The position numbers and the translations under genes were made by a program. Below the pieces are notes generated by a model. It was not told the origin of the DNA. It made no database searches and was given only the letters and a program-made list of their open reading frames with translations. From a virus (Duplodnaviria; Caudoviricetes), in the IMG/VR virus record IMGVR_UViG_3300044726_000026, positions 464-64,463 of that record: a stretch of 64,000 nucleotides of DNA, one strand, 5' to 3'. Positions 46,947-62,812 of the stretch are shown piece after piece (position 1 is the stretch's first letter; every line of letters begins with the position of its first letter).

Positions 46947-46960
46947 AACTCTGGACAAAA

Positions 46961-46988: not shown

Positions 46989-47000
46989 CATGTACGCTCG

Positions 47001-48408: not shown

Positions 48409-48453
48409 TTGCGAGGCGACAGTATAGCACGGCGGGCCGAGGAAGTAACTTCC

Positions 48454-48630: not shown

Positions 48631-48631
48631 T

Positions 48632-48997
48632 TCAGATCCCCAGGTCGTGGGCGCGGATGCGAGCACTGAAGCGGTCGTGCCATTTGATTTTGGAAGTAAC
48701 TTCTTTGACCGTCGTCTTCGGCGGTCGGGTCTTGTCGGTGTCTCCGATCTCCGCGCCGACGATCAGCGCGGGACCGGCGAACAGACCTTGACCGCAGCCG
48801 GGTAGTTCGAAGAAGTCTTCGAAGAGGAACAAGCCCTCGTCGTTTACGTAGACGGTATCGCCCTTGTGGTACCCGGCGAGGCAGAAGGTGTCGTGACCGT
48901 CGCTGTCGGAGACAGCCCTGCCGATGGATCGGAAGCCATCGGGGCATTCAACCGCGCTCACGCTACGGTCGATTGGGTTGATGTGGATCGCTTTCAT
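48632..48997 (-). CDS. DUF3846-like hypothetical protein
   Basis: MKAIHINP, VYVNDEGL, FAGPALIVG; start placed downstream of the promoter. Confidence 0.65.
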   Translation of the reverse strand: MKAIHINPIDRSVSAVECPDGFRSIGRAVSDSDGHDTFCLAGYHKGDTVYVNDEGLFLFEDFFELPGCGQGLFAGPALIVGAEIGDTDKTRPPKTTVKEVTSKIKWHDRFSARIRAHDLGI

Positions 48998-49349
48998 GCT
49001 GATGTCCTTTCTGTTTTCCAGCATGTATATTATCCCACAACGCAGCATGTATGTCAAGTTGAAGTGGAAGTGACTTCCGCCGCTTCCCTCTGACGATCTC
49101 GCTGATGCGTCCCTCGCTGTTAAGCCCGTGGGCATGAGCGATCTGGCTCATCGTCATGTGAGGAAAGTTCTCGTACATGTAGATGATGGACTTACGCATC
49201 TGGGGAGATATGCGCCGACTGACCGAGGGCGCACGCTTCAGCGGTGATCGGTTGTGCATCTCTTTACGCAGCACCGTTAGCCTGTCCGCCAACGCGCCGA
49301 CGACCTTAATCATGTCGTCCAGTTCCCGGCGCATATCATCCTTTGTCAT
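48963..49349 (-). CDS. HTH DNA-binding protein
   Basis: MTMSQIAHAHGLNSEGRISEIVRGK; GGAGG RBS. Confidence 0.65.
   Translation of the reverse strand: MTKDDMRRELDDMIKVVGALADRLTVLRKEMHNRSPLKRAPSVSRRISPQMRKSIIYMYENFPHMTMSQIAHAHGLNSEGRISEIVRGKRRKSLPLQLDIHAALWDNIHAGKQKGHQHESDPHQPNRP
49029..49057 (-). promoter_or_regulatory. sigma70-like early promoter
   Basis: TTGACA-N17-GATAAT on the minus strand. Confidence 0.75.
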
Positions 49350-49358
49350 CTGTTCCTC

Positions 49359-49481
49359 CTATGATTTCCAGAAAGACCACCAGAACGCCAGCCCAAGGAT
49401 GCCCCACATGAACAGGCCGACAGTGGTGCCAATGAGCAAGGCTCTGGCCGAGTGCCAATCACGATGGTTCTGGTACCTCAT
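49359..49481 (-). CDS. small membrane protein
   Basis: MRYQNHRDWHSARALLIGTTVGLFMWGILGLAFWWSFWKS; GGAGG RBS. Confidence 0.5.
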   Translation of the reverse strand: MRYQNHRDWHSARALLIGTTVGLFMWGILGLAFWWSFWKS

Positions 49482-49785
49482 GTGGTTTTTCCTCCACGAC
49501 TTCCGGTGGCGGTGGTGCTGGCGGCTGTGCCAACTGATCCGCCGACAGCGGGAAGTTACTTCCAAGCCAGACGTTCCGCAACTTCTCGACGGCGGAACAC
49601 ATGCACCACAGGTCGAGGCCGACTCCCGGCCCGCCGTAGTGTCTGACGGCATCGGCATAGGTGCCGTCCAGCGGCACGGTATCCTTCAGCCAACGACGCT
49701 GACCATTGTCCGCGATCAGAACCTCGTCGATTGCCTTGGACATACGTTGTAGTTGACGCGGTAGGTCTTTTTCGGTAGCCATCAT
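49459..49785 (-). CDS. hypothetical protein
   Basis: AGGAG RBS; tightly packed in the minus-strand operon. Confidence 0.55.
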   Translation of the reverse strand: MMATEKDLPRQLQRMSKAIDEVLIADNGQRRWLKDTVPLDGTYADAVRHYGGPGVGLDLWCMCSAVEKLRNVWLGSNFPLSADQLAQPPAPPPPEVVEEKPHEVPEPS

Positions 49786-49997
49786 TCTTCTCCTTGTTGG
49801 AACAGTTGGTCTATCGCGGCCTTGATCTTGTTCGCCGGGTGTATTCCCCAATGAGTGGGGAGTTCTTTATCTCCCCAATACAGGGCGAACTCCACGTCGG
49901 GAGAGTTTCCTTCCCGACGTATTCGCAAAGTCCAGCGGCTATTCAAGCTATCCAAGCCGTTGGGGAAATCGACCTCGATCTCTCGATACACTTTCAT
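49782..49997 (-). CDS. hypothetical protein
   Basis: ATG immediately after the palindrome at 49998-50010. Confidence 0.55.
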   Translation of the reverse strand: MKVYREIEVDFPNGLDSLNSRWTLRIRREGNSPDVEFALYWGDKELPTHWGIHPANKIKAAIDQLFQQGEE

Positions 49998-50002
49998 GGA
50001 AG

Positions 50003-50734
50003 TCACTTCCTTCTGAAAACATTCATCACGCGGAAACGGTGATTGGTTGACTTGACGATGCCCACCACCCCGATCAGGTCGAAGGTATCCTTGCGCCACA
50101 TGGGCAATACCTGATCGAGCCACACGACATGCGCCCCGGCGGGCAACCGGGCCAGTGCTACCAGCACCTTGTTACGCTTGACCATGGAGGTCTGATAGTG
50201 TTCCGCGTCCTCGACCGAGTACGGCGGGTCAGCCAACACGAGATCGTACCGGTCTAGCGGCACGTCCTCCAGGGTGTGCGCGTCGTCGGCGTAGTGTCTG
50301 GACCCTGACGTGTGGACGGACTCCGCAGCCAAGCTGATGTCCACTGTGTCCCCTGGAAACTTTTCGAGGTCTACGTGACCAGAGAACAGGTGCAGCGTGC
50401 GTTGCTTGTCGCGGAACAGAGCGCGGACACGCTCAAGGTAGGTGGCCGGGTACCCGCCGTAGAACTGGCTCTTGACGCGGTAGTCATTGCCCATGATCCA
50501 CGTCCCGACCAGACGCCCATCGGCTGAGATGAAGATGGCGTCGGGATAGCCGGTTTCGAAGCGGTAGTTCTCGATGCGGTCGGCCCAGCCCCACGGGTCG
50601 AACGGCGGGTCACGATTGACCAGCCGTGCGAGGTCCGCCGAGAGGGCTGTCGCCACGGTACGTGCCGCGCCGCCTGTCACGGGTCCGATCAGCCGTTCTC
50701 TGAGCCACTGGTACGCCTCATGCTGATCCATCAA
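50003..50734 (-). CDS. orphan amino (N6A/N4C) DNA methyltransferase
   Basis: LHLFSG SAM-binding-like motif; LVLADPPY. Confidence 0.75.
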   Translation of the reverse strand: MMDQHEAYQWLRERLIGPVTGGAARTVATALSADLARLVNRDPPFDPWGWADRIENYRFETGYPDAIFISADGRLVGTWIMGNDYRVKSQFYGGYPATYLERVRALFRDKQRTLHLFSGHVDLEKFPGDTVDISLAAESVHTSGSRHYADDAHTLEDVPLDRYDLVLADPPYSVEDAEHYQTSMVKRNKVLVALARLPAGAHVVWLDQVLPMWRKDTFDLIGVVGIVKSTNHRFRVMNVFRRK

Positions 50735-50920
50735 TCATGCCTCGGCGTCGGAAGTTACTTCTGCTGGTCTAACTATCCAGCCTTGAGCCATTAGCTTCTC
50801 CCGGCTCTCCTTGGTGTTGGGCATCTGTTTGAGCGCCACCAATCGGCTCCATGCGCCCTCTTCCGATACGAACTTGTTGGCCCAGGTCAGACCGTATCGG
50901 GTGACTACTTTGTATTGCAT
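50735..50920 (-). CDS. hypothetical protein
   Basis: MQYKVVTRYG...; GGAG RBS. Confidence 0.5.
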   Translation of the reverse strand: MQYKVVTRYGLTWANKFVSEEGAWSRLVALKQMPNTKESREKLMAQGWIVRPAEVTSDAEA

Positions 50921-50935
50921 CACCATCTCCATGCG

Positions 50936-50964
50936 AAAAAGGCGGGGCCTCGCGACCCCGCCTG
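50936..50964 (-). terminator. rho-independent terminator after ParB-like gene A
   Basis: Minus strand: AGGCGGGGTC-GCGA-GGCCCCGCCT-TTTT. Confidence 0.75.
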
Positions 50965-50987
50965 TCATCGGAAGTAACTTCCGGCGA

Positions 50988-52220
50988 TTAGAGTTCGCCG
51001 GTAGCCGGTTCGGCAATGCCGAGTGCCCGCAGATCAGGGGCATCGTCACCTTCCTTCTCGTTGTCGTCATCGTCCTCGGACAGATCGTCTTCGTCATCGT
51101 CCGGGCCGAGTTCGTCATCGACAGACGCGGCGGGCTTTTTGCCGGCGGTCTTCGCGGCTTTCGCTGCTGCCTTCTCGGCAAGCACCTTGGCCGCAGCCTC
51201 GTCTTCCGCCGCCAGTTCATCGACTGTCTTCGCCCGCTGGATTTTGACCTCGAACGAGATGTCGGAGACGGCGATCTTTTTCTTGGGCGAGCGGGTGCCC
51301 TTGAACCAAGTCTCGTCGTCTTCGATCAGCGGCATGAACTTCTCCACGTCCTCGTAGAGAAATTCAACACCCTCCTTGACCGCGAAGTTCATCCGCGTGG
51401 TGGCCATCATGTTGCGCGGCGGCTTCTCCCCGTTGGCTTCGAGGGTCTTCCGCGTCAGCTTGTCGACTTTCTTCTGCTCATTCTCAGCCGCACGGGCGTC
51501 GGCCTTCGCGAGAGCGTCCATGATCTTCTGGCCGGTGGGGTCTTTGCGAAGCTGTGCAATCGCCTCATAGGCCGCGATCCGGTTGTCGCGGATCGCATCA
51601 CGCACGCCCTTCGGTGCGTTGATGATCGTCTTCAGGTCGCGAACGTGCTTGTTCGTGACACCAAGGCGGGCGGCGATATCGTCGTCGTCCATGCCGGTCT
51701 TCATCATGCGGTTGGCAAGGACGGCACGCTCCAAGATCGTCGGACGAACGCCGGTGTTCTCTTTCCACAGAGACACCGCCAGATCCATGTCAGACGATCC
51801 CGGCTTCTTCATCACGACAGGCAGACGGGAGATGTCCGCCCCTTCGCTCGCCGCCAACATGGCGGCTTCGTACCGGCGATGGCCCGAGATCAGAGCCAAC
51901 TTGGCTTCACCACCAAACTCGGCGGGGAACACACCGAGCGGCTGGGTGTCGTAGAAGCCCTCCATTTTCATGGCGTCGGCCAGTTCACGGATGCCGTCCT
52001 TGTACTCCTGGGTATCCGTCACACGCAGGTTGAACCCAGGCACCACGGTAATGCCGTCGAGGTCAACCATGTACAGCTTGCCGGTCTTGGTCGCACCGGA
52101 GTAGGCGAGTGCATCCCCGGACGTACTGGGGTCGAACTCGATCATCTTCATACTCACCCGGTTGGGTGGAGGGGCTTTCGCCCTCGGCGCTTTGGCCGCA
52201 GCTTTTGCTTGTTTTGCCAT
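50988..52220 (-). CDS. ParB-like protein A (N-domain, HTH, acidic C-terminus)
   Basis: PGFNLR, LISGHRRYEA, ENTG, HTH MDDDDIAARLGVTNKHVRD; start set at 52220 because the longer ORF overlaps its promoter. Confidence 0.85.
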   Translation of the reverse strand: MAKQAKAAAKAPRAKAPPPNRVSMKMIEFDPSTSGDALAYSGATKTGKLYMVDLDGITVVPGFNLRVTDTQEYKDGIRELADAMKMEGFYDTQPLGVFPAEFGGEAKLALISGHRRYEAAMLAASEGADISRLPVVMKKPGSSDMDLAVSLWKENTGVRPTILERAVLANRMMKTGMDDDDIAARLGVTNKHVRDLKTIINAPKGVRDAIRDNRIAAYEAIAQLRKDPTGQKIMDALAKADARAAENEQKKVDKLTRKTLEANGEKPPRNMMATTRMNFAVKEGVEFLYEDVEKFMPLIEDDETWFKGTRSPKKKIAVSDISFEVKIQRAKTVDELAAEDEAAAKVLAEKAAAKAAKTAGKKPAASVDDELGPDDDEDDLSEDDDDNEKEGDDAPDLRALGIAEPATGEL

Positions 52221-52280
52221 TGGAAGACGCTTGCCTTTCAGGTTGTTCGAACCGGGGAGGGTGTCTCCCTCGGTCCTCAG

Positions 52281-52309
52281 AGTTAAGCACCATGCGATTT
52301 GCATGTCAA
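52281..52309 (-). promoter_or_regulatory. sigma70-like promoter of ParB-like gene A
   Basis: TTGACA-N17-TTAACT; palindrome 9 bp upstream of the -35. Confidence 0.65.
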
Positions 52310-52336
52310 GTCAGTTGGTGAAGTTACTTCCGAAAA

Positions 52337-52771
52337 TTATCGGTTCCAGAGGAACAGTCCGACCCGCCAATAACCGTCGTGGCAGGGGCCTCGGATCGAG
52401 TGTTCCCCGGCTGGTGTGGCGGGATCGTGTACCACCGCGCCGCCCTTAGCGACGACACAGTGGATGTGATACGTGTTCGTCCGACCTATCAAAAGATAGG
52501 TCGTCTCAGGCATTACATTGTGCATGTTCTCCAACAGGTTGTTGAGGGTGGGCAACTGGAACCCGAACTCCGCGTAGGTGTGACCGTGTGGTGCGAGCCA
52601 CTTACGCAGCTTCCGGGTGCCGACAGGAGTCACCAGATGGCCGTTGCCCGTAGTCTGATTGAAATTGGGGATCGCCGCGAGGCCCATATCCATCACCGAT
52701 GCGATACAGGCCGCGAAGCAGTCCCCAGGATCACCGGTCTTAGCGCCGGTTCGCTGGTAGATTAGTTTCAT
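52337..52771 (-). CDS. hypothetical protein, possible Cys-His-Asp papain-like fold
   Basis: Q...GDCFAACIAS...HCVV.....VHDP. Confidence 0.6.
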   Translation of the reverse strand: MKLIYQRTGAKTGDPGDCFAACIASVMDMGLAAIPNFNQTTGNGHLVTPVGTRKLRKWLAPHGHTYAEFGFQLPTLNNLLENMHNVMPETTYLLIGRTNTYHIHCVVAKGGAVVHDPATPAGEHSIRGPCHDGYWRVGLFLWNR

Positions 52772-52787
52772 GGGAAGTTACTTCCTC

Positions 52788-53060
52788 CTATTCCACTCGG
52801 GTAATCATAAGCACGGCACCGATATCCCTGGACGCCGTGCGCCCTTCGAATGTCTCGGTGCTGAACCTACGCCCGGTGCGCTCTTGTATGCGCTGGACGG
52901 TTGGCTGCATCCCTAGTCGGAGGGTACGCAGGTACTCCCTGGGGACGTGCTTCAGCGTTTCGTCGGCGTCGAACCTCGCGCCGCGCATCAGGCACTCACC
53001 GATCTCCAGGGCTTCTATCTGTGCCCGATAGGAGACATTTTCGTCGATAGTCGTGGACAT
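52788..53060 (-). CDS. hypothetical protein
   Basis: AAAGGA RBS; operon packing. Confidence 0.6.
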   Translation of the reverse strand: MSTTIDENVSYRAQIEALEIGECLMRGARFDADETLKHVPREYLRTLRLGMQPTVQRIQERTGRRFSTETFEGRTASRDIGAVLMITRVE

Positions 53061-53070
53061 GGCATTCCTT

Positions 53071-53346
53071 TCACGCAGCGTCAGGGGTGGGAGGTTCAGT
53101 CTTCACGAAGCCCGGCAGGAGATCGACCTGAAACGACAGTTTGGTCTTGCCGACTCGGCACAGGTACCGCTCCAGCAGACCGTCATAGCCGGTATTCTTT
53201 TCCTCCAAGGCTATCATGGTCATAACGACTTCGGGGTCTTTCTCACCTGTCAGATTACGCACCGTCTTGAAGTCAACTTCACGATGCGGTGTCGCTGTAT
53301 GGAAGGTTCTCTTATAGGCTTCTTCGAGTTGGCTCAGTTTTATCAT
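53071..53346 (-). CDS. hypothetical protein
   Basis: GAGG RBS; first gene after the promoter. Confidence 0.6.
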   Translation of the reverse strand: MIKLSQLEEAYKRTFHTATPHREVDFKTVRNLTGEKDPEVVMTMIALEEKNTGYDGLLERYLCRVGKTKLSFQVDLLPGFVKTEPPTPDAA

Positions 53347-53398
53347 CTGGTTTCCTCGGAAGTTACTTCCGACCGAAAGGGATTTTCGATCGTCAGAA

Positions 53399-53427
53399 AG
53401 CATAGCGCCACGCAAAACGTATGTCAA
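53399..53427 (-). promoter_or_regulatory. sigma70-like early promoter (leftward)
   Basis: TTGACA-N17-TATGCT. Confidence 0.8.
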
Positions 53428-53441
53428 GTTGAGTCTGACGT

Positions 53442-53534
53442 GCGTAGTGGCGGAGTGGGTGGGCGTGCGTAGTGGCGGAGTGGGTACGGCGCGTAGTGGC
53501 GGAGTGGGTAAGGGCGCGTAGTGGCGGAGTGGGT
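53442..53534. repeat. four 19-bp direct repeats, 24-25 bp period
   Basis: GCGTAGTGGCGGAGTGGGT at 53442, 53467, 53491 and 53516. Confidence 0.95.
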
Positions 53535-53811
53535 AACACGGACGCGGGCTTCACGCATGGGCGGGGGTTCTCTCGCCGGGGACGCTCGCTCGCGTGTGCA
53601 TGTGCGCGTACGCAAGCGTGTGCGGGTACCCACGGGTACACGTGATGGCGCATGACCCTACGTGTGGGTACGCGTACGCGCGTGCGAGATCGTGTAGCGT
53701 GCGCGCATGACAACGCGCGTGATACGCGCCCGGTTTTCATGTGATCGCGATCCGCGCGAGCGCATGTGTCGGCTGAAGTCACTTCCACCGTGTTGTGGGG
53801 CAAAACATGGC

Positions 53812-53840
53812 TTGACATACATTTTGCAGGGTAGTATGCT
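53812..53840 (+). promoter_or_regulatory. sigma70-like early promoter (rightward)
   Basis: TTGACA-N17-TATGCT. Confidence 0.8.
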
Positions 53841-53914
53841 TGCTGACGGTCGAAAACCGACCGAGTTCCTCGGCAAATGGCCGAGGAAGTAACTTCCAAG
53901 CGGAGCAAAAAATC

Positions 53915-54109
53915 GTGGCTCATAACGTCGAATACGCCGTCAAGGGCACCAAGCTGGTCATCACGATGGACATCAGTCCCGCGTCGATCAACGCGGCCCC
54001 GCCGTCCCAGACCGGCAAGACCAATTTGGTCGCGTCCACTGGCGGTTCGGTGAAGGTTGACGGCAAGGACGGTTTGTCCTTCTCGGTCAACCTGATGCAG
54101 AAGAAGTAA
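53915..54109 (+). CDS. small conserved hypothetical protein
   Basis: GTG start; PSQTGKTNLVASTGG. Confidence 0.7.
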   Translation: MAHNVEYAVKGTKLVITMDISPASINAAPPSQTGKTNLVASTGGSVKVDGKDGLSFSVNLMQKK

Positions 54110-54157
54110 CTTCCACTTTGGCGGGGCTTCGGCCCCGCCGCATCGGAGCAAATCGAA

Positions 54158-54358
54158 ATGGCAAAAACACCAGTCCCCGACGGGGAATGGCTCAAGACCG
54201 CGCCCATCAAGCAGATCAAGGTGCGGGTCTGCTCGCACATGATCCTGTTGCCCTCGCACTATCGCGAGAACGGGACGTGCAAGTGCGACGATCCGGGCGA
54301 ACTCGTCATGCGTGAGTGGGGCTACAAGTGGAGCCGGGAAAAGGGGCTTTGGGTCTAA
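54158..54358 (+). CDS. small Cys/His protein (paralog of 48454-48630)
   Basis: CSHMILLPSHYRENGTCKCDD...MREWG. Confidence 0.65.
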   Translation: MAKTPVPDGEWLKTAPIKQIKVRVCSHMILLPSHYRENGTCKCDDPGELVMREWGYKWSREKGLWV

Positions 54359-54540
54359 TGGCACAGGTCAGTCAGGATACCTTGCGGATCGACATTCTCC
54401 GCGAGGCGCGGGACCGCTATCTGGCGGTACGCAACATGCACCACGTCACCAATGCGGAGGCGTCGTTGTGCAGTCTGAAAATCGCCGAATGCGAGGCGAT
54501 GTTGCGCGAACTGCTGGAAATTCCAGCCGACGCGCCGTGA
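54358..54540 (+). CDS. hypothetical protein
   Basis: TAATG coupling to the previous gene. Confidence 0.55.
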   Translation: MAQVSQDTLRIDILREARDRYLAVRNMHHVTNAEASLCSLKIAECEAMLRELLEIPADAP

Positions 54541-54568
54541 AGTAACTTCGACAACAGGAGCAAAACCA

Positions 54569-54862
54569 GTGGCTTTGGCAGAAATCGTTAAGGAACTGGC
54601 GGCACTCACCGTGCCCCAGTACATCACCCGCGAGAACGTGGACGAGTTGCTCGACAAGGGCATGATCGAGGTCCACATGAACAGCGGCAAGTGGTGGCGT
54701 GTGCGTCGCAACGGTCGCACGCAGAAGTGGAAGCGCGACCCCTCGCGCATCCGCATCCCGTTCAAGTTCGGCTTGAAGGGTTGCGGGGCTTTCGAGACGC
54801 AGGACTTCAACGGGCCGCACGGCTCGTTGCGGACGGATTACTTCCGCGTGGCACCCAACTAG
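54569..54862 (+). CDS. hypothetical basic protein
   Basis: AACAGGAGCAAAAC RBS; RRNGRTQKWKRDP.R.RIP.K.G. Confidence 0.7.
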   Translation: MALAEIVKELAALTVPQYITRENVDELLDKGMIEVHMNSGKWWRVRRNGRTQKWKRDPSRIRIPFKFGLKGCGAFETQDFNGPHGSLRTDYFRVAPN

Positions 54863-54866
54863 GAGC

Positions 54867-55154
54867 ATGAGAATGGCCGTGACTGAAACCTACGAGGAAA
54901 CCCTCATCAACTACGTCTGGTTCATCGAGTTCGAACGGGTGGAGGGTGGGGTGAAGTTACTTCGCAACTACCGCCTCCGGTTCAACAATCCCGACCGGCC
55001 CACGTCCCTCGGCGCGGGCCACACCATCGAGCGGACGGACGGCTCGCGTATCGTGGAGTCGGTCGAGATCGTCCCCTACAAGACCAACAAAAAAGAGGTC
55101 CACAAGGTCGTCAATCCGAAGCACGTCTTCTCCTACGAGAGCGAGGCGAACTGA
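54867..55154 (+). CDS. hypothetical protein
   Basis: AGGAG RBS. Confidence 0.6.
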   Translation: MRMAVTETYEETLINYVWFIEFERVEGGVKLLRNYRLRFNNPDRPTSLGAGHTIERTDGSRIVESVEIVPYKTNKKEVHKVVNPKHVFSYESEAN

Positions 55155-55233
55155 CCGGTTTCGCGGACGGTTGCCGGGGCTACGGCCCCGGCAACAGCCT
55201 GGGAAACCCAGGAAGTTACTTCCACCAACAGAT

Positions 55234-55262
55234 TTGACATACACTCCGCGTGGTGGTAGTAT
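55234..55262 (+). promoter_or_regulatory. sigma70-like early promoter
   Basis: TTGACA-N17-TAGTAT. Confidence 0.7.
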
Positions 55263-55289
55263 TCTGAACCATCAACAAAAGGACCAAGC

Positions 55290-55532
55290 GTGGAAGAACT
55301 AAAAACCAAGCGTTATTGGCGTGGGTCCGCTCCCGTCAAATGTGACCTGTCGGAGCATAAGCCCGGCAAGCACGACATCGGCAACAACTTCATTGATGGC
55401 AAAACCACCATGGGACCGTGGGCCATCATGTGCTTGCGCTGTTCACGCATGTACGGCGTGGGCGTCGGAACCGGTCGAGGCCAACATTACCAGAAACAAG
55501 AAGATGGTCAGTGGCTGAAGATCGACGGCTAG
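55290..55532 (+). CDS. small Zn-binding hypothetical protein
   Basis: CD...FIDGKT..GPWAIMC..C...G.G.GTGRGQ.Y. Confidence 0.7.
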   Translation: MEELKTKRYWRGSAPVKCDLSEHKPGKHDIGNNFIDGKTTMGPWAIMCLRCSRMYGVGVGTGRGQHYQKQEDGQWLKIDG

Positions 55533-55585
55533 GAAGTAACTTCGGCGGCGGGGCTTTTCCCGCCGCCGCTCTAGGAGCAACACAA

Positions 55586-56044
55586 ATGCAAAATCCACAA
55601 GAACAGGACTTCGACGACCGGACCTATCAGGACGGCGTGGACAAGGCGTGCGAGGTCATCGCGATTGCCTTGCGTGAGTGGGCCAGCCCCGCCGTTGGGC
55701 TGGGAGAGGATGTCGCGAAGGCTGTCGCCATCGCCCTCGACAACGCCAACATCGGCGCACACGCCTACATCTTCCGGGCCATCGTGAACGACACGCCGAA
55801 CAAGTGGCGCGAGGTCACGGAGGAACGGTACGACGAGATGCTTGGTGTCCTGCCGCCTATCGCCTGGACCGACTATGGGTTCCTCGTGGGCGAGCCGTGG
55901 GACCACCATCCGATCTACGGGTTCTCGCGCTACACGGCCATGCTCCAGTACTGCGGGCGCTTCTACGAGAGCACCCGTCCCGTGGGCGTGAAGGCGTGGA
56001 AGACGCTCGACCTGACGACCCTCGTGCGGGACATCCTCCCGTGA
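55586..56044 (+). CDS. hypothetical protein (DUF1419-like C-domain)
   Basis: WREVTEERYDEMLGVLPP...FLVGEP; AGGAG RBS. Confidence 0.6.
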   Translation: MQNPQEQDFDDRTYQDGVDKACEVIAIALREWASPAVGLGEDVAKAVAIALDNANIGAHAYIFRAIVNDTPNKWREVTEERYDEMLGVLPPIAWTDYGFLVGEPWDHHPIYGFSRYTAMLQYCGRFYESTRPVGVKAWKTLDLTTLVRDILP

Positions 56045-56283
56045 GAGGCTACCGGCTGTACTGGTGTACCTACTGGCGGCGCTACTTGGATACCATGCCG
56101 CCTCTGGTCATCTTCGTCGCCACGGACGGCACGGCTTATGCCGCTGCCGATCCGATGAAGTTACTTCGGCAGAAGCGCCTTGGGAAAGCGCCGAAGCCGA
56201 AGGCGGTTCGACCGAAACGTCACCGGTTCGTGAAGCCGAAGATACCGAAGCCAACCCATGAAGCGCCCCGGAGGGCACAATGA
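56041..56283 (+). CDS. basic hypothetical protein
   Basis: GTGA and ATGA overlaps with neighbours. Confidence 0.45.
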   Translation: MRGYRLYWCTYWRRYLDTMPPLVIFVATDGTAYAAADPMKLLRQKRLGKAPKPKAVRPKRHRFVKPKIPKPTHEAPRRAQ

Positions 56284-56636
56284 GACGACGTTTCGAACTC
56301 TACTTCGACTGCGATAACGACAGCTTCACTGATCCCGGCCTCGTGGCCGGGATCAAGCGCACGTTGAAACTCGTGCGCTGGATGATCGGCAACAGTTTCG
56401 ACCTGAGCAAAGGTAACGCCTCTGCACGGACCATCATGGACGGCAACGGCAACACCGTGGGCGAGTGGCGCTATCGCGTGATGCCCGACCACATGCGGAT
56501 CGTGGGTGTGCTTGGCCTGTGGTACGGCGACACGCCGCTGCCCGAGGGCTGGCGCTTTATGTTTGATCAGGACAAGAAGGCCAAGATCCGTTTCATCACC
56601 AACATGGAAGGAGGACCGTCCTATGAGCCAAGGTAA
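56280..56636 (+). CDS. hypothetical protein
   Basis: IMDGNGNTVGEW; GGAGG RBS. Confidence 0.6.
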   Translation: MRRRFELYFDCDNDSFTDPGLVAGIKRTLKLVRWMIGNSFDLSKGNASARTIMDGNGNTVGEWRYRVMPDHMRIVGVLGLWYGDTPLPEGWRFMFDQDKKAKIRFITNMEGGPSYEPR

Positions 56637-56967
56637 CAAGGCGAAGGACATGATCCGCGCCGTCGTCGAGAAGGCGATTGCTGACGGTGCGATACCCGTT
56701 GAGGAAATCCCCGCCGTTCGGAAGTTACTTCCGAAGACGACGGCAATTCGTAAGCGCACCGGGCCGAGTGCGGGGGCCACGTACGTCGATGACAATTTCG
56801 GCGTCTACGAAATCCGCGATGGCGATGATGTGCAGTTCTACTTCGCGATGCAACGCAAGTCGGTGCTGAAAACCTGCGTAGACTGCGGTCGCAAGGTCCG
56901 CATCAGCCCCGACTACGAGTGCTGCAATTCCTGCGCCGATGCCCGTGAGAGGGGCTGGGGCGGCTAG
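56623..56967 (+). CDS. zinc-ribbon hypothetical protein
   Basis: CVDC...CNSC; GGAGGA RBS. Confidence 0.6.
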   Translation: MSQGNKAKDMIRAVVEKAIADGAIPVEEIPAVRKLLPKTTAIRKRTGPSAGATYVDDNFGVYEIRDGDDVQFYFAMQRKSVLKTCVDCGRKVRISPDYECCNSCADARERGWGG

Positions 56968-56993
56968 ACATTCATTTTGCAGTGTGCTAGACT
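56965..56993 (+). promoter_or_regulatory. sigma70-like early promoter (variant)
   Basis: TAGACA-N17-TAGACT; spacer resembles the other early promoters. Confidence 0.55.
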
Positions 56994-57062
56994 TGGCAAG
57001 ATCGGAATGAAGGCCGGGGGTTCCGATCCGGAAGTTACTTCCCCGGCCCAGGAGCAAAACTA

Positions 57063-57521
57063 ATGTCGAACCAAGTCGAAATGCGAACGCTGTTCGTTCG
57101 AAAGCGTCGAGAGATCGTCGAGCAGATCGTCAAGCTGGAAGCCAAGCTGGCCGTGTACGACGATCTGCTGGCCGAACTGCCCGATAACGTGTTCCCCACC
57201 TACAAGGGAACGGGTAAGGCGGTGACGGTCGAGGCGGCGCAACCCCTGGCTTTCGAGAAGCCCGCGAAGCGGACCTACTCCAAGCGGGAAAGCCGTGGTC
57301 CGAGCGCGACGGACGCCATCGAACTGGCGTTGGAAGCGGCAGGCGACAAGGGTGTCACCGCACGAGAAGTGGCGTCGGTGGCCGGAATGCCGACCGGTAC
57401 CGCATCGGGCCGGTTGTCGCTGATGAAGGCCGAAGGCAGGGTCAGGCATGACCCGCCGCGCTATTTCGCCGTGCATAGCAAGCACGAGGACAACAACGTC
57501 GATCAGGGGAGGGGGGAATGA
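57063..57521 (+). CDS. coiled-coil plus C-terminal winged-helix DNA-binding protein
   Basis: VTAREVASVAGMPTGTASGRLSLMKAEGRV. Confidence 0.7.
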   Translation: MSNQVEMRTLFVRKRREIVEQIVKLEAKLAVYDDLLAELPDNVFPTYKGTGKAVTVEAAQPLAFEKPAKRTYSKRESRGPSATDAIELALEAAGDKGVTAREVASVAGMPTGTASGRLSLMKAEGRVRHDPPRYFAVHSKHEDNNVDQGRGE

Positions 57522-57859
57522 CCTTTCGAATTTCGCCAAAGCCCGCCAAGAATACGGGTGGGTACCAGCAGGCGGTGTACCTGAAACGGACGCTAGAAGC
57601 CGGGGGGTGGGAGGCCGCGCTCGAACAGCGCGGCGCGACGCCCGAGCATAACGTGCTGATGTCCGCCGTGTGGGCAATCGCCTTCCCGCGTGAGGGCGTG
57701 ACCAAGCTGTCGTACGAGAACCACGAAATCACGTTCGACTACACGTTCAAGCCCACGCAGAAAATGTCCATCGAGGTCGATGGCTTTCCGATCTCGTGGC
57801 ACATCGTCGCGTTGAAGATCATGCTGCTCGATGACGATGAGGAAGTTACTTCCCCATGA
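57518..57859 (+). CDS. hypothetical protein
   Basis: ATGA overlaps. Confidence 0.6.
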   Translation: MTFRISPKPAKNTGGYQQAVYLKRTLEAGGWEAALEQRGATPEHNVLMSAVWAIAFPREGVTKLSYENHEITFDYTFKPTQKMSIEVDGFPISWHIVALKIMLLDDDEEVTSP

Positions 57860-58059
57860 AGATGCACCCATCAGTCACCCTGGATCGTGTCGTTGCCGCC
57901 GTGCGGCGCTACAACGAGACGACCGACAACCCAGGCATCTGCATCGCTTGCGGGGCCGACGCCGAGGATGTCGAGCCTGATGCCCGTGCCTACGAGTGCG
58001 ACCATTGCGGTTCTCATCGCGTCTACGGCGCGGAAGAACTGCTGATGATGCTGGCATGA
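57856..58059 (+). CDS. zinc-ribbon protein
   Basis: GICIACG...VEPDA..YECDHCG...VYGAEEL. Confidence 0.7.
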   Translation: MKMHPSVTLDRVVAAVRRYNETTDNPGICIACGADAEDVEPDARAYECDHCGSHRVYGAEELLMMLA

Positions 58060-58394
58060 AGTTACTTCTCCTGGTCGTGGCGCTCGCCACGACCAGTTGC
58101 GCGTCGAGGCAGTACGTCTCGACGTGCTCATCCATACCGGGGCAGAACCCGGCCTATTTCGAGGCATTCGATAAGCAATGGGGATCTGACACACGCCACA
58201 GCGCCGGGTACCTCGACGCCGTGGCGCAGGAGAAGGCCGGGAACTGTTCCGCCGTGTTCGACTACCTGAACCCCGGCTACCGGCAAACCGAGGCGTACAG
58301 CGCCGAACTACGCGGCGCGCTTCGCAGTGCCTACGAGACAGACCTGGCTCTGGCTCCGTGGTACTACTACCGCTACCGTCCCTATCACCGCTAA
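58056..58394 (+). CDS. putative lipoprotein
   Basis: MKLLLLVVALATTSC lipobox-like signal. Confidence 0.6.
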   Translation: MKLLLLVVALATTSCASRQYVSTCSSIPGQNPAYFEAFDKQWGSDTRHSAGYLDAVAQEKAGNCSAVFDYLNPGYRQTEAYSAELRGALRSAYETDLALAPWYYYRYRPYHR

Positions 58395-58411
58395 CAACAG
58401 GAGCAAAACCC

Positions 58412-58993
58412 ATGACCGAGATCGACGAGATCGTCGCGAATATCCCGCTTGCCGGGATGTCCTCGCGCGTCGCGTGCCGCCGAAAGGTGGAAGAACTGAT
58501 GGAAGGAGAAAACGAAACAATAAAAACCCAGGTGGTCGATGCCTTATGGGATCGCTACGTCGAGGGCTGGCCGCATGACCTGTTCGTCAAGCGGTTGCTG
58601 GAAGTTACTTCCGGCCAGAAGGTCGGTTGCATCCTGCGCGTCATGTTCAACGACCCGCGCCAGTACCAGCCGCGCTATGACCGTCAGGCGATCATCACGT
58701 CCGACGGGTACCTCATGTGCGGGTTCACGGACACGAAGGGGGACTATCACCCCGGCGCGTTTGTCGGTTCGGCGTTCGAACTGACGCGCAACCTGATCGC
58801 CGTTTGCGTGTTCGCCAAATTGAGCGGCGATGAAATCCTGGCGCTTGGGGACGCCGCTGATAGTTGGATCGGGACCGACTATCGGGCCGGGGCTTCGTAC
58901 CCGCCGAGGCTGGTCCTGAACACCGCCGAGAGCGAGCGCGCATCGCAAGAGGCGCTGGCCATCTATGGGGAGCATATGAAACCCCCAACTTGA
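58412..58993 (+). CDS. hypothetical protein
   Basis: AACAGGAGCAAAAC RBS. Confidence 0.65.
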   Translation: MTEIDEIVANIPLAGMSSRVACRRKVEELMEGENETIKTQVVDALWDRYVEGWPHDLFVKRLLEVTSGQKVGCILRVMFNDPRQYQPRYDRQAIITSDGYLMCGFTDTKGDYHPGAFVGSAFELTRNLIAVCVFAKLSGDEILALGDAADSWIGTDYRAGASYPPRLVLNTAESERASQEALAIYGEHMKPPT

Positions 58994-59018
58994 CATACGT
59001 TTTGCGTGGTGGTATGAT
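58990..59018 (+). promoter_or_regulatory. sigma70-like early promoter
   Basis: TTGACA-N17-TATGAT; spacer nearly identical to the 53399-53427 promoter. Confidence 0.8.
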
Positions 59019-59198
59019 TGGACATGATCGAAAAGGGGGCCGGGTCGATCAGGAAGTTACTTCCGGCCCATCAACAGGAGCAACGATGCCACCCAAACCG
59101 AAGTGCCTGACACCCCGCAAATGCGTCATCCCGCATGGGTGGTATCGGGCTTTTTGCGAAAAGTGTCAGGCTACCAAAAAGCAACAGGAGCAAAACCA

Positions 59199-59405
59199 AT
59201 GCGTCTCCGAGCAGTGCGTAATCTCAGGCGTGGCGACCGCATCGCCCTGGACGCGCCGGAGGAACCCCTCGTTGAAGTGGTATCGGTAGATACCGCCGAC
59301 GCGCCGGGGTACTACGGCGTCAGGATGAGGATCATCGGCGGCGTCGAGTGCCGACCGATGGTCAACGCGGTCTGGCCGGGTGACGATCTGGTCGAGTTGG
59401 CCTGA
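59199..59405 (+). CDS. hypothetical protein
   Basis: AACAGGAGCAAAAC RBS. Confidence 0.55.
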   Translation: MRLRAVRNLRRGDRIALDAPEEPLVEVVSVDTADAPGYYGVRMRIIGGVECRPMVNAVWPGDDLVELA

Positions 59406-59602
59406 TGTTCGGCACCTATTCACGGCTGCGCCTCCACGTCAGCGCGAGCGACACGGAGGTCGTGCGAGCGGCACGCAGGATGCTGGACATGCGGAAGTGC
59501 CTCGGCACTCGCAAGCTGCGTCAAGCTCGACGCCGCTTCTACCGGCAAATGCTGAAATTTCACCACGACAATCAGGCGATGTTTCGGCGCTACCGTTTCT
59601 GA
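59405..59602 (+). CDS. basic hypothetical protein
   Basis: TGATG coupling. Confidence 0.6.
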   Translation: MFGTYSRLRLHVSASDTEVVRAARRMLDMRKCLGTRKLRQARRRFYRQMLKFHHDNQAMFRRYRF

Positions 59603-59625
59603 AGTTACTTCCAAAGGAAAAAATC

Positions 59626-59868
59626 ATGGCCACCTATATGATGCTTGTCGTTGGTGCGACGGAGGAAGAGGCGTCACTCTTCCTCACACAAGCAGAGATC
59701 AAACAAGTGTTCGACAGCGTGCCGGAACCGTGGCGTCACACGGCACGGCTCGTGGTCGAGCATCTCGGCAATACGGCAATCCTGAATTTGCTCGCCACGC
59801 TGCCTGATACCTGTCCCGACCAATTCCACGGCGGGTGGAGCACGTTGGAACGGGCCGACGAAGACTGA
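59626..59868 (+). CDS. hypothetical protein
   Basis: AAAGGA RBS. Confidence 0.55.
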   Translation: MATYMMLVVGATEEEASLFLTQAEIKQVFDSVPEPWRHTARLVVEHLGNTAILNLLATLPDTCPDQFHGGWSTLERADED

Positions 59869-59958
59869 AGTATACTTCCACAGACGGATGCCACCTCGCG
59901 GGGTGGCATCAGCCTGTCGAAGACGGCGGGACAACACACCAACAGGAGCAACACGACT

Positions 59959-60255
59959 ATGGCTTACGAACAAGGCGAAGTGATCGTGCCGGTGCTGAAC
60001 ATCAACGGAGCATCTGGCGACGATCTCTTGGGTGCGTACCAGGCGGCGCTCGACGCGCTGCGTGAGGCGATCACCTGCATGAACATGACCGCGCCGCACG
60101 GTCGGGACTTTCAGACCGAGCAGGAGTCGGTTCTGCGCGAGGCGCGTGACCAGCACCAGCGGCGGGTCAAGGCGGTCGCCGAGGTCTATCGCGACATCGA
60201 GGCGATTGCCTGTGCCGTGCATGACCAGTTGATGATCCGTCGTTTCGGTCGGTAA
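59959..60255 (+). CDS. hypothetical protein
   Basis: AACAGGAGCAAC RBS; P.LNINGASG..L...APHGRD. Confidence 0.65.
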   Translation: MAYEQGEVIVPVLNINGASGDDLLGAYQAALDALREAITCMNMTAPHGRDFQTEQESVLREARDQHQRRVKAVAEVYRDIEAIACAVHDQLMIRRFGR

Positions 60256-60270
60256 AAGGAAGTTACTTCC

Positions 60271-60492
60271 ATGATCGACAACTTCGAAAGTCGCATCCGA
60301 GAGTGGCGTTGGTACATCGCCGAGCAGAAAGTCGAACACCTGCTTGACACCAAATCCACAATCGTTGCGTGGTTGAAAAATCCGCTCCACATCTACGGGA
60401 CCGGGCCGACCGCGCAATCCGACCTCGAGTACGACCAGCTTCGGCTGGTCGAGATCGACGCCGAGATCAGACGTAGACGCCCACAGACGTAG
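60271..60492 (+). CDS. hypothetical protein
   Basis: ATG directly after a palindrome; stop inside the first unit of the repeat array. Confidence 0.55.
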   Translation: MIDNFESRIREWRWYIAEQKVEHLLDTKSTIVAWLKNPLHIYGTGPTAQSDLEYDQLRLVEIDAEIRRRRPQT

Positions 60493-60692
60493 CGCGGGTA
60501 CGCTGACCCACAGACGTAGCGTGGGTACGCTGACCCACAGACGTAGGGTAGGGCGCGTCCCCCACAGACGTAGGGTGGGGGCGCGCATGGCCTGACCGGC
60601 CACGCCAGGTACCATGACCCACAGCCGTATAGTGGGTACCCCTCCCCACAGCCGGGGAGTGGGTACCCACCCCCACAGACGTAGGGTGGGGG
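60480..60692. repeat. 27-bp-period array of CCCACAGACGTAG...GTGGG units (7 copies, degenerate)
   Basis: Units at 60480, 60507, 60534, 60561, 60618, 60645 and 60672. Confidence 0.9.
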
Positions 60693-60942
60693 AGCGAGCG
60701 TGCAAACGCGTACATCCGCGAGGGTGTGCGCGTATGCGCCTACGCGCGTACGCGCGCGTGCGTACGCCCGCGAGGGCGTGTGTGCGTGTGGGGGAGTGGG
60801 GGCGCTCGCGTATGCGTGCGAGCGTGTGACGCGGCTGCGCGGTTTCCGTATGACGCGCAACGCGGGCGGGCGGACGGGCTGGCGGACGCGGCCAGCCGCC
60901 CGCCTTGGCGGACGGGCTGGACGGTTGGCCGGTTGGCCGGTT

Positions 60943-60997
60943 GGCGGAAGTCACTTCCGGCAATTCGCAACCGGAACAATCGGAAGTGACTTCCGCC
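60943..60997. repeat. 17-bp inverted repeat built from two palindrome copies
   Basis: GGCGGAAGTCACTTCCG-N21-CGGAAGTGACTTCCGCC. Confidence 0.9.
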
Positions 60998-61075
60998 CGA
61001 TTGCCAGCCCGTCCAGAGCGGCCAGCCCGCCGCAATATTTGGCGGACTTCCGCCAACGGTTGCCGGTTTGAAGGT

Positions 61076-61104
61076 TTGACATACACCTAGCGTTGTGGGA
61101 TTAT
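61076..61104 (+). promoter_or_regulatory. sigma70-like promoter of ParB-like gene B
   Basis: TTGACA-N17-GATTAT. Confidence 0.7.
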
Positions 61105-61170
61105 GTGTTGCGGGAAAAAACCCGCCGCCAAGGCAATTGCCGGACGCGAAACGATTAGGAGTAAAACCAA

Positions 61171-62769
61171 GTGACGACAAATAGCTTCAAAAGCATTGCC
61201 GGTTTCACAATGCTTTCTGGCCTTCCCTGTATTGATCCGGCCATGATCCGGACCATTCCAGGTTACAACGTCCGCGATGCTTTCTCGCCCGAAACGGACG
61301 CGGCGGACGCCCAACTCGCGGACAATATGGCCGCGAACGGTTTCATCGCGGACAAGCCCATTACCGTCCGCATTGTGGACAACGTGGCGTACGTCATTGC
61401 CGGCCATCGCAGGCTGGACGCGGCCAATTGGCTAAACGCCCGTTATCTCGCGGCCAACCCGGCCAAGGGAAAGGCCAAGGCCAAGGCGGCTGCGGCCAAC
61501 CGTCCGATACGCGGCGTGACGTTCATTCCGGAAGCGGTACAGGCCAACGGTGAAATTCGTTCTCCGGTTGAAATGTCCTATGATCTCGAATTGAGCAACA
61601 CGGGCAAACCGCTTTCGCCAGCGGAACGCGGCGCGAATATCCTGCGGCTGCGCGCCATGGGAGAAACGGACGAAACGATCGCGCAACGGCTTGGCATCGG
61701 CACGCGTTGGGTTGGCGATTTGGCCAAGCTTGGCCGCAGTGATCCGCGATTGAAGGCGCTTGTTAAGGCGGGCGTCATTCCGCCTACAACGGCCATCCTG
61801 CTAGAACGCGCCCATGGTTCGGAAACCGGAACGGCAATCGCGATTGCCGCCGCCGCTCTCGCGGCGGCGGACGGCAAGCCCAACGCAACCGGCAAGCATG
61901 TGGCGGAAGCGGAAACCAACGCGGGCGTTGTCGCCAAGGTTGGCGGCAAGAACAAGAAAGGCGCGGACAAGCGGCCAGAGGAAACGCCCGCCGCGCCAAC
62001 CGTTACCGTCATTCCGGAAAAGGCCAAGGCCAACCCGGACAGTCCGCTTGTTACGATTGCGACACTGGCGGGACCGTTTCACTTGGGAAAGGATCTCGAA
62101 GAGCGGACGTTGTATGACGCCAACGGTTTGACGTTGTGCGAAATGGTGGACGTTGGGATGGCACGCGCAATGCTCCAACTCGCAATGCTGGGTTGGAACG
62201 TTGTGCGCGGAACGTCCGCCAGCGCAGCCGCAACGGAAGCGGCTGCGGCCAGCCCGCCAGCCGCCAAAGTGACGGCCAAGGCCAAGGCGGCTGCGGACGC
62301 CAAGGCCAAGGCGGACGCCAAGGCGGCTGCGGACGCGGAAGCGGCTGCGGCCATCGCGGCGGAAGCGGCTGCGCTGGACGCGGCGGAAGCCAAGGCCAAG
62401 CGCCAAGCGGAAGCCCGCGAGCGTGTTGCCCGTCAGGTTGCGGCGGACGATGCCAAGCGGGTTGCGGCTGCGGAAGCAAACCGCGCGGCGGCTGCGGCCA
62501 TGGTTGCCGGGAAGCCCATTGCGGCCATGGCCAAGGCGGCTGCGGCCAAAGTGACGGCCAAGGCCAAGGCGGACGCGGCCAAGGCGGCTGCGGACGCTCT
62601 GGCGGCTGCGGAAGCGGCGGAAGCGGAAGCGGCTGCGCTGGCCAAGGCGGAAGCGGCCAACGTCCGCAACGCCAACCGGGAAGCGGCCAAGGTTGCCAAG
62701 GCGGCTGCGGCTGCGGCCGCTCTGGCGGCTGGCAAGGCCAACGGAAAGGCCAAGCCCGCGCGGAAGTAG
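61171..62769 (+). CDS. ParB-like protein B (N-domain, HTH, long Ala/Lys-rich tail)
   Basis: PGYNVR, YVIAGHRRLDA, SNTGKPLSPAE, HTH ETDETIAQRLGIGTRWVGD; AGGAG RBS; own promoter and terminator. Confidence 0.85.
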   Translation: MTTNSFKSIAGFTMLSGLPCIDPAMIRTIPGYNVRDAFSPETDAADAQLADNMAANGFIADKPITVRIVDNVAYVIAGHRRLDAANWLNARYLAANPAKGKAKAKAAAANRPIRGVTFIPEAVQANGEIRSPVEMSYDLELSNTGKPLSPAERGANILRLRAMGETDETIAQRLGIGTRWVGDLAKLGRSDPRLKALVKAGVIPPTTAILLERAHGSETGTAIAIAAAALAAADGKPNATGKHVAEAETNAGVVAKVGGKNKKGADKRPEETPAAPTVTVIPEKAKANPDSPLVTIATLAGPFHLGKDLEERTLYDANGLTLCEMVDVGMARAMLQLAMLGWNVVRGTSASAAATEAAAASPPAAKVTAKAKAAADAKAKADAKAAADAEAAAAIAAEAAALDAAEAKAKRQAEARERVARQVAADDAKRVAAAEANRAAAAAMVAGKPIAAMAKAAAAKVTAKAKADAAKAAADALAAAEAAEAEAAALAKAEAANVRNANREAAKVAKAAAAAAALAAGKANGKAKPARK

Positions 62770-62775: not shown

Positions 62776-62812
62776 AAGCCCGCCGCTCAATTGAGCGGCG
62801 GGCTTTTCTTTT
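62776..62812 (+). terminator. rho-independent terminator
   Basis: AAGCCCGCCGCTC-AATT-GAGCGGCGGGCTT-TTCTTT. Confidence 0.85.

Follow-up and report, generated by a model that had tools for sequence, protein, structure and literature searches.

The stretch of DNA analyzed here (64,000 nucleotides, hereafter designated the window) corresponds to bases 464–64463 of IMGVR_UViG_3300044726_000026, a complete 64,463-bp record of a tailed soil phage in IMG/VR (hereafter designated G000; CheckV completeness, 100%). It encodes two orphan ParB-like proteins, ParB1 and ParB2, on opposite strands, and contains a family of dispersed 13-bp palindromes. The features are collected in Table 1 with coordinates numbered from the first base of the window; counts given for the window refer to the 64,000-nt stretch, and those given for the genome to the whole record of G000. 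The relatives taken from IMG/VR are designated G001 and G003–G008, of which G003 and G004 are partial contigs and G006, G007, and G008 are complete.

Table 1 Features of the two parB loci and the dispersed palindrome, in window coordinates.
Feature	Position	Strand	Basis
Dispersed palindrome family, consensus GGAAGT-N-ACTTCC	1153..60994		Motif counts
Palindrome and ParB1 intrinsic terminator	50936..50982	-	Direct reading
ParB1, 410-residue orphan ParB-like protein	50988..52220	-	phrog_1033, Foldseek, alignment
ParB1 promoter region	52281..52331	-	Direct reading
Iteron array, ~7 units, 27-bp period	60470..60700		Repeat reading
ParB2 control region	60946..61104	+	Palindromes and promoter scan
ParB2, 532-residue orphan ParB-like protein	61171..62769	+	phrog_1033, Foldseek, alignment
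ParB2 intrinsic terminator, 13-bp stem and T-run	62776..62805	+	Terminator scan

ParB1 lies in an open reading frame (ORF) spanning 50988–52304, in which the start at 52220 matches the N-termini of the homologues; the IMG call is a 387-residue protein starting at 52151. The protein consists of a ParB/Srx-like N-terminal domain, a helix-turn-helix (HTH), a beta-rich C-terminal domain, and an acidic tail with the conserved end APDLRALGIAEPATGEL, and direct reading identified PGFNLR, GHRR, and ENTG motifs in addition to the HTH (DIAARLGVTNKHVRDL). It matched phrog_1033 ('ParB-like partition protein') at 5.5e-39 and Thermus Spo0J (1vz0) at 8.6e-6, the latter alignment covering the GERR/GHRR patch and the HTH, with GHRRYEAA of ParB1 aligned to GERRYRAA of Spo0J and ENTG to ENLQ. 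The G, H, and R93 of this patch were invariant across 24 homologues; the GxRR arginine patch and the E/N motif are boxes of the cytidine triphosphate (CTP) pocket in this family.

The AlphaFold2 (AF2) model of ParB1 (predicted local distance difference test score (pLDDT), 77.5) had KorB of RK2 as its best solved neighbor in Foldseek searches (8qa9, 4e-10; identity, ~19–21%), and the further neighbors were Noc (7ol9 and 7nfu; 2e-8 to 3e-8), chromosomal ParB, PadC, and sulfiredoxin. When residues 240–340 were modeled as two copies, the interaction prediction score from aligned errors (ipSAE) was 0.62, compared with 0.00 for the best of three controls, and the runs showed a contact agreement of at least 94% and a partner pLDDT of at least 85; the mark of 0.62 was attained by 20 of 30 proteins solved as same-chain pairs, compared with 1 of 23 whose structures contain a single chain, although these benchmark counts serve only as a rough guide because a custom alignment was used. 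The models predict that ParB1 dimerizes through the C-terminal domain, for which no homology to known ParB C-terminal domains was detected in any search run. As a separate observation, nearly all ParB1-type proteins, including those of phages AH2 and SS2019XI that lack the palindrome, possess an acidic C-terminal stretch with a hydrophobic cap (ending in ...GEL, ...DDL, ...DDI, ...SDL, or ...VDI), and these tails recall the acidic tips of the single-stranded DNA-binding protein (SSB) type that dock partner proteins.

ParB2, which has also been called as a 519-residue protein from 61210, is arranged as an N-terminal domain, an HTH, a small conserved middle domain, ~150 residues rich in Ala, Lys, and Glu that are predicted to form long helices, and a basic end. 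Its motifs by direct reading are PGYNVR, GHRR, SNTG, and the HTH (TIAQRLGIGTRWVGDL), with Ser in place of the Glu of the E/N motif, a substitution from which nucleotide binding but no hydrolysis would be predicted. ParB2 matched phrog_1033 at 4.2e-28, and its AF2 model (pLDDT, 67) was matched by Foldseek to ParB (7bnr, 4.5e-7), KorB (8qa9, 4.8e-7), and Noc (~5e-7). As judged from the models, both proteins have the ParB/KorB/Noc fold. A first-pass annotation of the same DNA had described two ParB-like genes with these motifs and an HTH, and this description was borne out by the motifs as read, the phrog_1033 hits, and the fold matches. Homologues of ParB2 were found only in G003, G004, and G005, and ParB2 is regarded as a paralogue specific to the clade formed by these relatives and G000.

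The window holds 69 copies of the palindrome core, GAAGTNACTTC, and the genome 71, compared with ~0.01 copies expected from shuffles; the first-pass annotation had put the number of sites at ~68. The full palindrome, GGAAGTNACTTCC, accounts for 47 of the 71 core copies; GGAAGTTACTTCC gave 109 strand-matches with at most one mismatch versus 0.01 in shuffles, and three further copies have a 2-nt spacer. At the center, the 71 copies have T (35), A (26), C (7), or G (3) without strand bias, and no conservation was seen beyond the 13-mer. The sites are separated by a mean gap of ~840 bp and are spaced more evenly than random placement predicts, with a coefficient of variation (CV) of 0.71 versus 0.98 (P~0.001). 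By crude gene calls, 32 of the 71 sites lie deep inside genes where 54 were expected, with ~2-fold enrichment at gene boundaries, and the in-gene copies scored (n = 26) were distributed over the three reading frames as 15, 6, and 5. The remaining sites are squeezed into gene junctions, often overlapping the upstream stop codon (through a TGA using the T of the first position of the site, or a TAA at its center) and abutting the next start codon. None of 40 listed metagenome substitutions fell in the 21 sites of positions 50000–59999, which is uninformative because only ~1 was expected.

The replication and morphogenesis proteins of G000 show 30–60% identity to those of Chi/Nazgul-like siphophages, and by these proteins its relatives are BcepNazgul, AH2, phiAxp-2, FoX4, SS2019XI, and Aeromonas phages, mostly classified in Casjensviridae; a megablast search of positions 50000–63000 against the phage collection gave no match. 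Identical 12 bases are present at both ends of the record (a cos-like overlap). In the whole 64,463-bp record, no match was found to ParA-type ATPases (PF13614 and PF01656), tyrosine integrases, or resolvases, and a search of 185,579 species-representative bacterial genomes with the ParB1 alignment yielded no relative, either as prophage or as plasmid. Because ParA, integrase, and resolvase matches and bacterial relatives of ParB1 are all lacking, G000 looks virulent. It is a Chi/Nazgul-like (Casjensviridae-like) siphophage. The first-pass annotation had seen neither ParA nor integrase and had left room for a ParA in the part of the genome outside its view; this part amounts to 463 non-coding-looking bases with two extra palindrome copies, and the complete genome contains no ParA match.

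The same palindrome was found in other phages. The core GAAGTNACTTC is present in 59 copies in G001 (54.5 kb), in 33 copies in each of the partial contigs G003 and G004, and in 41 copies in G005 along with eight copies of GAAGTATACTTC; the complete genomes G006, G007, and G008 have 18, 19, and 26 copies, respectively, and nine further partial contigs have 3–22 each. Among named phages, 25 copies were counted in Erythrobacter phage vB_EliS-R22L (hereafter R22L) and 18 in Burkholderia phage BcepNazgul, and none in AH2, Carli, or Delftia phage RG-2014. Sphingomonas phage Carli instead has 30 copies of a variant, GGAAAYSRTTTCC, and the motif of G006 is relaxed to GGAA-N-T-W-A-N-TTCC. Most of the G000 sites that could be aligned are kept at orthologous positions (kept/aligned: G001, 54/57; G003, 17/19; G004, 12/14; G005, 9/12), the rest of the 71 sites having no aligned counterpart in those relatives; the flanks around the kept sites are ~78% (G003 and G004) or 71% (G005) identical. 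Moreover, the spacing CV was below the random mean in nine of nine genomes (P≤0.004 in six), being 0.47 in both G005 and Carli, and the sites lay deep in genes at a proportion of 45–63% in all six genomes tested, versus 77–82% of the sequence. Collectively, from the comparison of the genomes, it may be concluded that the palindromes are a real, selected, genome-wide DNA element shared beyond one phage. The system is not private to this phage, the same motif being present in the published BcepNazgul and R22L genomes.

The presence of the motif beyond G000, in a group of related phages, is new here. In the literature, searches by motif strings returned only unrelated primer and aptamer papers, a search for BcepNazgul together with the palindrome gave nothing relevant, and term searches in the main texts of the papers on AH2/BcepNazgul and on the Erythrobacter phage likewise turned up neither the motif nor a connection between it and ParBs. 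Two side observations concern individual palindromes. One of the three of 57 aligned sites not kept in G001, that at 54102–54114, carries an insertion variant both in G001 and in the metagenome run X6, and Salmonella phage 9NA, which has a related ParB-like gene, contains TAACAnnnnnTGTTA eight times in 52.9 kb.

The position of many sites at gene junctions bears on an alternative that we consider improbable, namely, that the palindromes act as hairpins, either in RNA, for translation coupling or processing at cistron junctions, or in single-stranded DNA, for lagging-strand priming or replication. A model for the RNA version is provided by the start-associated sequences of Cluster K mycobacteriophages, a motif located upstream of start codons. 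In line with this, 23 of the 71 sites in G000 lie 0–6 nt before a start codon (ORFs of 50 residues or more counted), versus 16% at random, many overlap an upstream stop codon, and the 1- or 2-nt spacer is easily accommodated in a loop; the even kilobase-scale spacing also suits priming. However, start adjacency exceeded the random level of 13–18% only in G000 (32%), G001 (29%), and G007 (44%), and was at or below random in six of the nine genomes (G005, 16%; G006, 11%; G008, 19%; BcepNazgul, 11%; R22L, 8%; Carli, 5%), and a start-associated translation element was therefore rejected as not conserved over the relatives. Furthermore, about half of the sites are within genes with all three frames used, the center base has no strand bias as described above, the calculated RNA folds were weak (−3.8 to −5.3 kcal/mol) and no better than shuffles in two of three contexts, and no Rfam match was found in the window. 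Because the copies within any one genome are uniform in sequence, recognition of sequence rather than shape is indicated.

Much the same positional data relate to another role at the DNA level, to which we assign a very small probability: the palindromes might be boundary sequences for module exchange, or a Chi-like or nuclease-modulating palindromic signal. The ~2-fold enrichment at gene boundaries would agree with such a role, as would a replacement seen in the metagenome runs X3, X5, and X6, where a 292-bp segment (59613–59906) is swapped for 29 other bases with its left junction exactly at the end of the palindrome 59600–59612. This is one instance and the single replacement junction, though, and the even spacing and in-gene copies are unexpected for boundary linkers; no candidate nuclease tracks the motif.

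The distribution of genes among these phages makes a ParB a candidate for the protein that reads the palindrome. A ParB1-type gene is present in nine of nine complete or near-complete motif-bearing genomes (G000, G001, G005, G006, G007, G008, BcepNazgul, R22L, and Carli with the variant motif), and a palindrome-bearing relative lacking both ParB genes, a case raised in the first-pass annotation, was not encountered among them. The dispersed palindrome was not found in the first 60 kb of each of four ParB-less relatives (phiAxp-2, FoX4, JS26, and A18P4). When 85 ORFs of G000 were tracked over 12–16 genomes by tblastn and by profiles built from close relatives of G000, ParB was the sole non-core gene present in every motif-bearing genome. 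No other DNA-binding PHROG annotation was found on the 20 other ORFs of the early region, 16 of which have no PHROG hit at all. As the motif goes together with the ParB1 lineage alone, homologues of ParB2 being confined to one clade, the candidate reader narrows to ParB1. Two other candidates were tried and rejected: Pol A (5319–7454) looked linked to the motif over five genomes but is also present in the motif-less SS2019XI and A18P4, and the DNA methyltransferase at 50003–50734 is common only to G005 and, weakly, SS2019XI.

Taken together, the co-occurrence suggests that a KorB/Noc-like protein may be loaded at these sites along the whole genome. Tentatively, and with slightly less than even confidence, we propose that ParB1 binds the palindrome and loads at the dispersed sites as a ParA-independent clamp of the KorB/Noc type. 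The first-pass view that one or both ParBs load at the sites is thereby retained in part: it narrows to the ParB1 lineage as the candidate, and the link between protein and sites is circumstantial, given the ParB-bearing phages without sites described below.

Several observations weigh against this proposal. At the level of the proteins, ParB1 scored 19.1 bits against HTH_ParB (PF17762), under the cut-off of 22.6, no match to ParB_N (PF02195) was found in the six frames of G000 (four close ParB1 homologues carry a precomputed PF02195 label), and ParB2 gave no Pfam hit. At the level of the sites, the eight copies of GAAGTATACTTC in G005 have a 1-bp wider half-site spacing, which a rigid dimer would not tolerate. 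AH2 and SS2019XI have a ParB1-type gene yet no site, even at one mismatch, and the ParB of AH2 is 39% identical to ParB1 and thus nearer to it than that of BcepNazgul (25%); RG-2014, PPpW-3, phiRSP, FoX3, and ST79 also have a related ParB but no dispersed palindrome, bringing the ParB-bearing phages without it to seven. The TerL (large terminase subunit) and portal trees are polytomies, so that few independent events may underlie the co-occurrence.

The recognition helices gave a divided answer to the covariation with the palindrome that the first-pass annotation had proposed to look for. The recognition helix of all GAAGT-type ParBs follows the pattern x[RK][HYF][VIL]xD[LV]; in the ParB of Carli, as in the proteins P0025 and P0026, its D is replaced by N. 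This D-to-N change coincides with the shift of the motif from GAAGT to GGAAAYSRTTTCC in Carli. It is a single event, and a search for more Carli-like genomes found none in IMG/VR with P0026 and, in the phage collection, none besides Carli. On the other side, helices differ under the identical motif (NKHVRDL, ERHVGDL, DRYLYDL, and PRYLDDV), and AH2 retains the helix signature though it lacks the motif. Because the helices vary under one motif and AH2 keeps the signature, no clear specificity code emerges.

These same features lend some weight to an alternative that we judge unlikely but still substantial: another dimeric protein would bind the palindromes, either a host factor or a small regulator of the phage that evolves too fast to be traced by sequence searches. 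ParB would co-occur with the palindromes by shared ancestry, and the ParB-like proteins would have an unrelated function that needs few specific sites or none. The seven ParB-bearing phages that lack the motif (AH2, SS2019XI, and five others), the recognition helices that vary while the motif stays invariant, the trees that do not separate independent events, and the largely unannotated early genes (16 of 20 without a PHROG hit) are all compatible with such a reader, and the ORF at 57063–57521, which is winged-helix-like by eye from its sequence, is a candidate for it. Against this stands the result that no other accessory gene is common to all motif-bearing genomes, even by profile. A host factor in particular fits poorly because the motif follows the phage lineage and not the host: it is common to a Burkholderia and an Erythrobacter phage, is altered in a Sphingomonas phage, and is missing from AH2, which also infects Burkholderia.

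Returning to ParB1 as the favored reader, palindromes are found in the control regions of both parB genes. On the minus strand upstream of ParB1, the palindrome 52319–52331 is followed after 9 nt by a −35 element, TTGACA (52309–52304), and after a further 17 nt by a −10-like TTAACT (52286–52281). Directly after the ParB1 stop codon, the palindrome 50970–50982 precedes a GGCGGGG...CCCCGCC stem (50962–50941) and a T-run (50940–50936), and this order of stop, site, and terminator after parB is common to G000, G005 (ParB1 identity to G000, 46%), and BcepNazgul. The palindromes 60946–60958 and 60982–60994 lie upstream of the ParB2 promoter, TTGACA-17-GATTAT (61076–61104; 10/12), and G003, G004, and G005 likewise have 1–3 palindromes upstream of a TTGACAT promoter before ParB2. 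The first-pass annotation had assigned palindromes at 52319, 60946, and 60982 and a sigma70-like promoter and terminator to the two genes; the palindromes are present as assigned, and the promoter and terminator were recovered by the scans for ParB2 and by eye for ParB1, where the consensus scan flagged neither. Each parB gene of G000 is a separate transcription unit.

The ParB1 and ParB2 promoters belong to a family of near-identical strong sigma70-type promoters, at 52309(-), 53427(-), 53812, 55234, 58990, and 61076 in the small-gene region of 52–61 kb, with the consensus TTGACAT(A/G)C ... TGGTGG-TATGMT. Each of these promoters has a palindrome copy nearby, the distance being within ~90 bp at five TTGACAT promoters, and palindromes lie 0–10 nt upstream of the −35 element at three promoters, namely, that of ParB1, that at 55234, where the site 55211 precedes TTGACA in the same layout as at the ParB1 promoter, and a promoter-like TTGGCA at the left end.

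An iteron array is located between the gene 60271–60492 and the ParB2 promoter; its units resemble CCCACAG(A/C)CGTAnnGTGGG, a GC-rich stretch of alternating purines and pyrimidines follows to ~60860, and related iterons occupy the matching place upstream of ParB2 in G003, G004, and G005. The array may be a replication origin or a binding array for ParB2. Several further repeats were noted in these regions. Between the promoters 53427(-) and 53812(+), a divergent control region contains 3.8 tandem copies of a 25-bp unit, GCGTAGTGGCGGAGTGGGTAAGCGC (53442–53536), which is resembled by the CGTAGTGGCGGA(C/G)TGGGT units upstream of ParB2 in G004. A 38-nt arm adjoining the site 60982 is 76% complementary to 63748–63785, and the genome ends (62770–64000 of the window and bases 1–463 of the genome) are non-coding, with inverted repeats and dense GC-rich short repeats that include five copies of GGACGGGCTGGC.

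As to the neighbors of ParB1, the methyltransferase gene at 50003–50734(-), two genes downstream, matched phrog_3816 at 1.4e-38 and has a DPPY motif. Immediately upstream of parB, R22L has a gene annotated DUF2312 (vB_EliS-R22L 13454–13753), Carli, G006, and G008 have a stretch of the gaagaagagaagaag type akin to it, and G000 has at the corresponding position an unrelated gene for a 144-residue protein (phrog_5845).

By analogy, the system would work most like KorB/OB of RK2 and Noc/NBS (Noc-binding sites) of Bacillus subtilis. RK2 has about 12 OB sites (operators of KorB) on a plasmid, together with KorA and IncC (a ParA), whereas G000 has 71 sites and no ParA in an apparently virulent phage. 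KorB, the best structural neighbor of ParB1, is a ParB-CTPase clamp for gene control and not for partition; the C-terminal domain and acidic tail of ParB1 are unrelated to those of KorB. As described in passages of one report (PMC11790492), the KorB operator has a palindromic core of 13 bp whose center is free (OB oligonucleotide core, TTTAGCGGCTAAA), and KorB acts from sites that are dispersed over a ~60-kb replicon, both promoter-proximal and distal, as a clamp sliding up to 1.5 kb. The 6-1-6 geometry of OB is the same as that of GGAAGT-N-ACTTCC. Noc is, like the phage proteins, an orphan of the ParB type without ParA, and it binds a dispersed palindrome and spreads with CTP, as is proposed for ParB1. 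It uses ~70 sites on a 4-Mb chromosome, at a density ~60-fold lower than in G000, and tethers DNA to the membrane for division control. Thus, the site density in G000 is 6- to 60-fold above those of the two systems, and even spacing, the lytic phage, and the different C-terminal architecture further set it apart.

Other systems are more distant. Stoperators of Cluster A mycobacteriophages are 13-bp sites, present in ~25–35 copies that lie mostly in short intergenic gaps and are bound by one phage protein for genome-wide silencing; they resemble the sites of G000 in being dispersed through a siphophage genome. However, stoperators are asymmetric, oriented with transcription, rarely located in genes, and bound by the immunity repressor of a temperate phage, whereas the sites of G000 are symmetric, half in genes, evenly spaced, and carried by an apparently virulent phage. 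ParABS systems, exemplified among plasmid prophages by P1 and the parABS of Cluster A mycobacteriophages, likewise comprise a ParB with an N-terminal domain bearing the GxRR patch, an HTH, a C-terminal domain that dimerizes (as is predicted for ParB1), and palindromic sites, but G000 has no ParA, clustered palindrome centromere, integrase, or prophage or plasmid relatives. Because of the ParB/KorB/Noc-type fold without ParA, a partition role is unlikely. Direct reading of the ParB1 and ParB2 N-termini found no ParA-binding peptide of the LG(R/K)GL type, as this motif is defined in a passage of PMC12704722. Orphan ParB-like proteins of phages that activate thymine dioxygenases (5mYOX) represent a non-partition role (PMC13229309); as described there, those ParBs have no obvious DNA-binding domain and work with a TET/JBP partner, unlike the HTH-containing ParBs of G000, and this pathway was rejected since no TET/JBP gene (PF12851) match was found in the genome.

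The mechanism that we propose may be outlined as follows. ParB1 would be a ParA-independent member of the ParB-CTPase clamps, closest in fold to KorB and Noc, whose dimer, formed through the C-terminal domain, would recognize the 13-bp GGAAGT-N-ACTTCC. With sites every 0.8–3 kb, long genes included, loading could occur everywhere and the phage chromosome could be covered at a short sliding range; the even spacing fits such a coverage or loading role. From the copies beside early promoters of the TTGACAT type, among them the promoters of the two parB genes, ParB1 would control transcription in the manner of KorB and provide autoregulation, and ParB2 would either use the same palindromes or bind the iterons upstream of its own gene. 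Palindrome binding, CTP dependence, sliding, and the physiological role are what we infer for the system. As a more far-reaching and rather doubtful extension, virulent Casjensviridae-like phages might coat their chromosome as a phage-specific 'chromatin' from an evenly spaced loading lattice of ParB-CTP clamps. On the same speculative footing, the coat might organize or time transcription and replication or distinguish phage from host DNA, and site and clamp might co-evolve between lineages, GAAGT giving way to GAAAY as Asp is exchanged for Asn.

Phages and other mobile elements commonly encode orphan ParB-CTPase proteins, whose roles are largely unknown (PMC12704722). The present comparison ties one orphan ParB lineage to a DNA element that is strongly selected, evenly spaced, and present in lineage-specific variants. 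As at least three cultured phages (BcepNazgul, R22L, and Carli) carry this element as well, the function of a ParA-less phage ParB becomes directly testable. If the link holds, the principle of KorB and Noc would reach beyond a dozen operators to a lattice of loading sites that spans the entire genome of a lytic virus.

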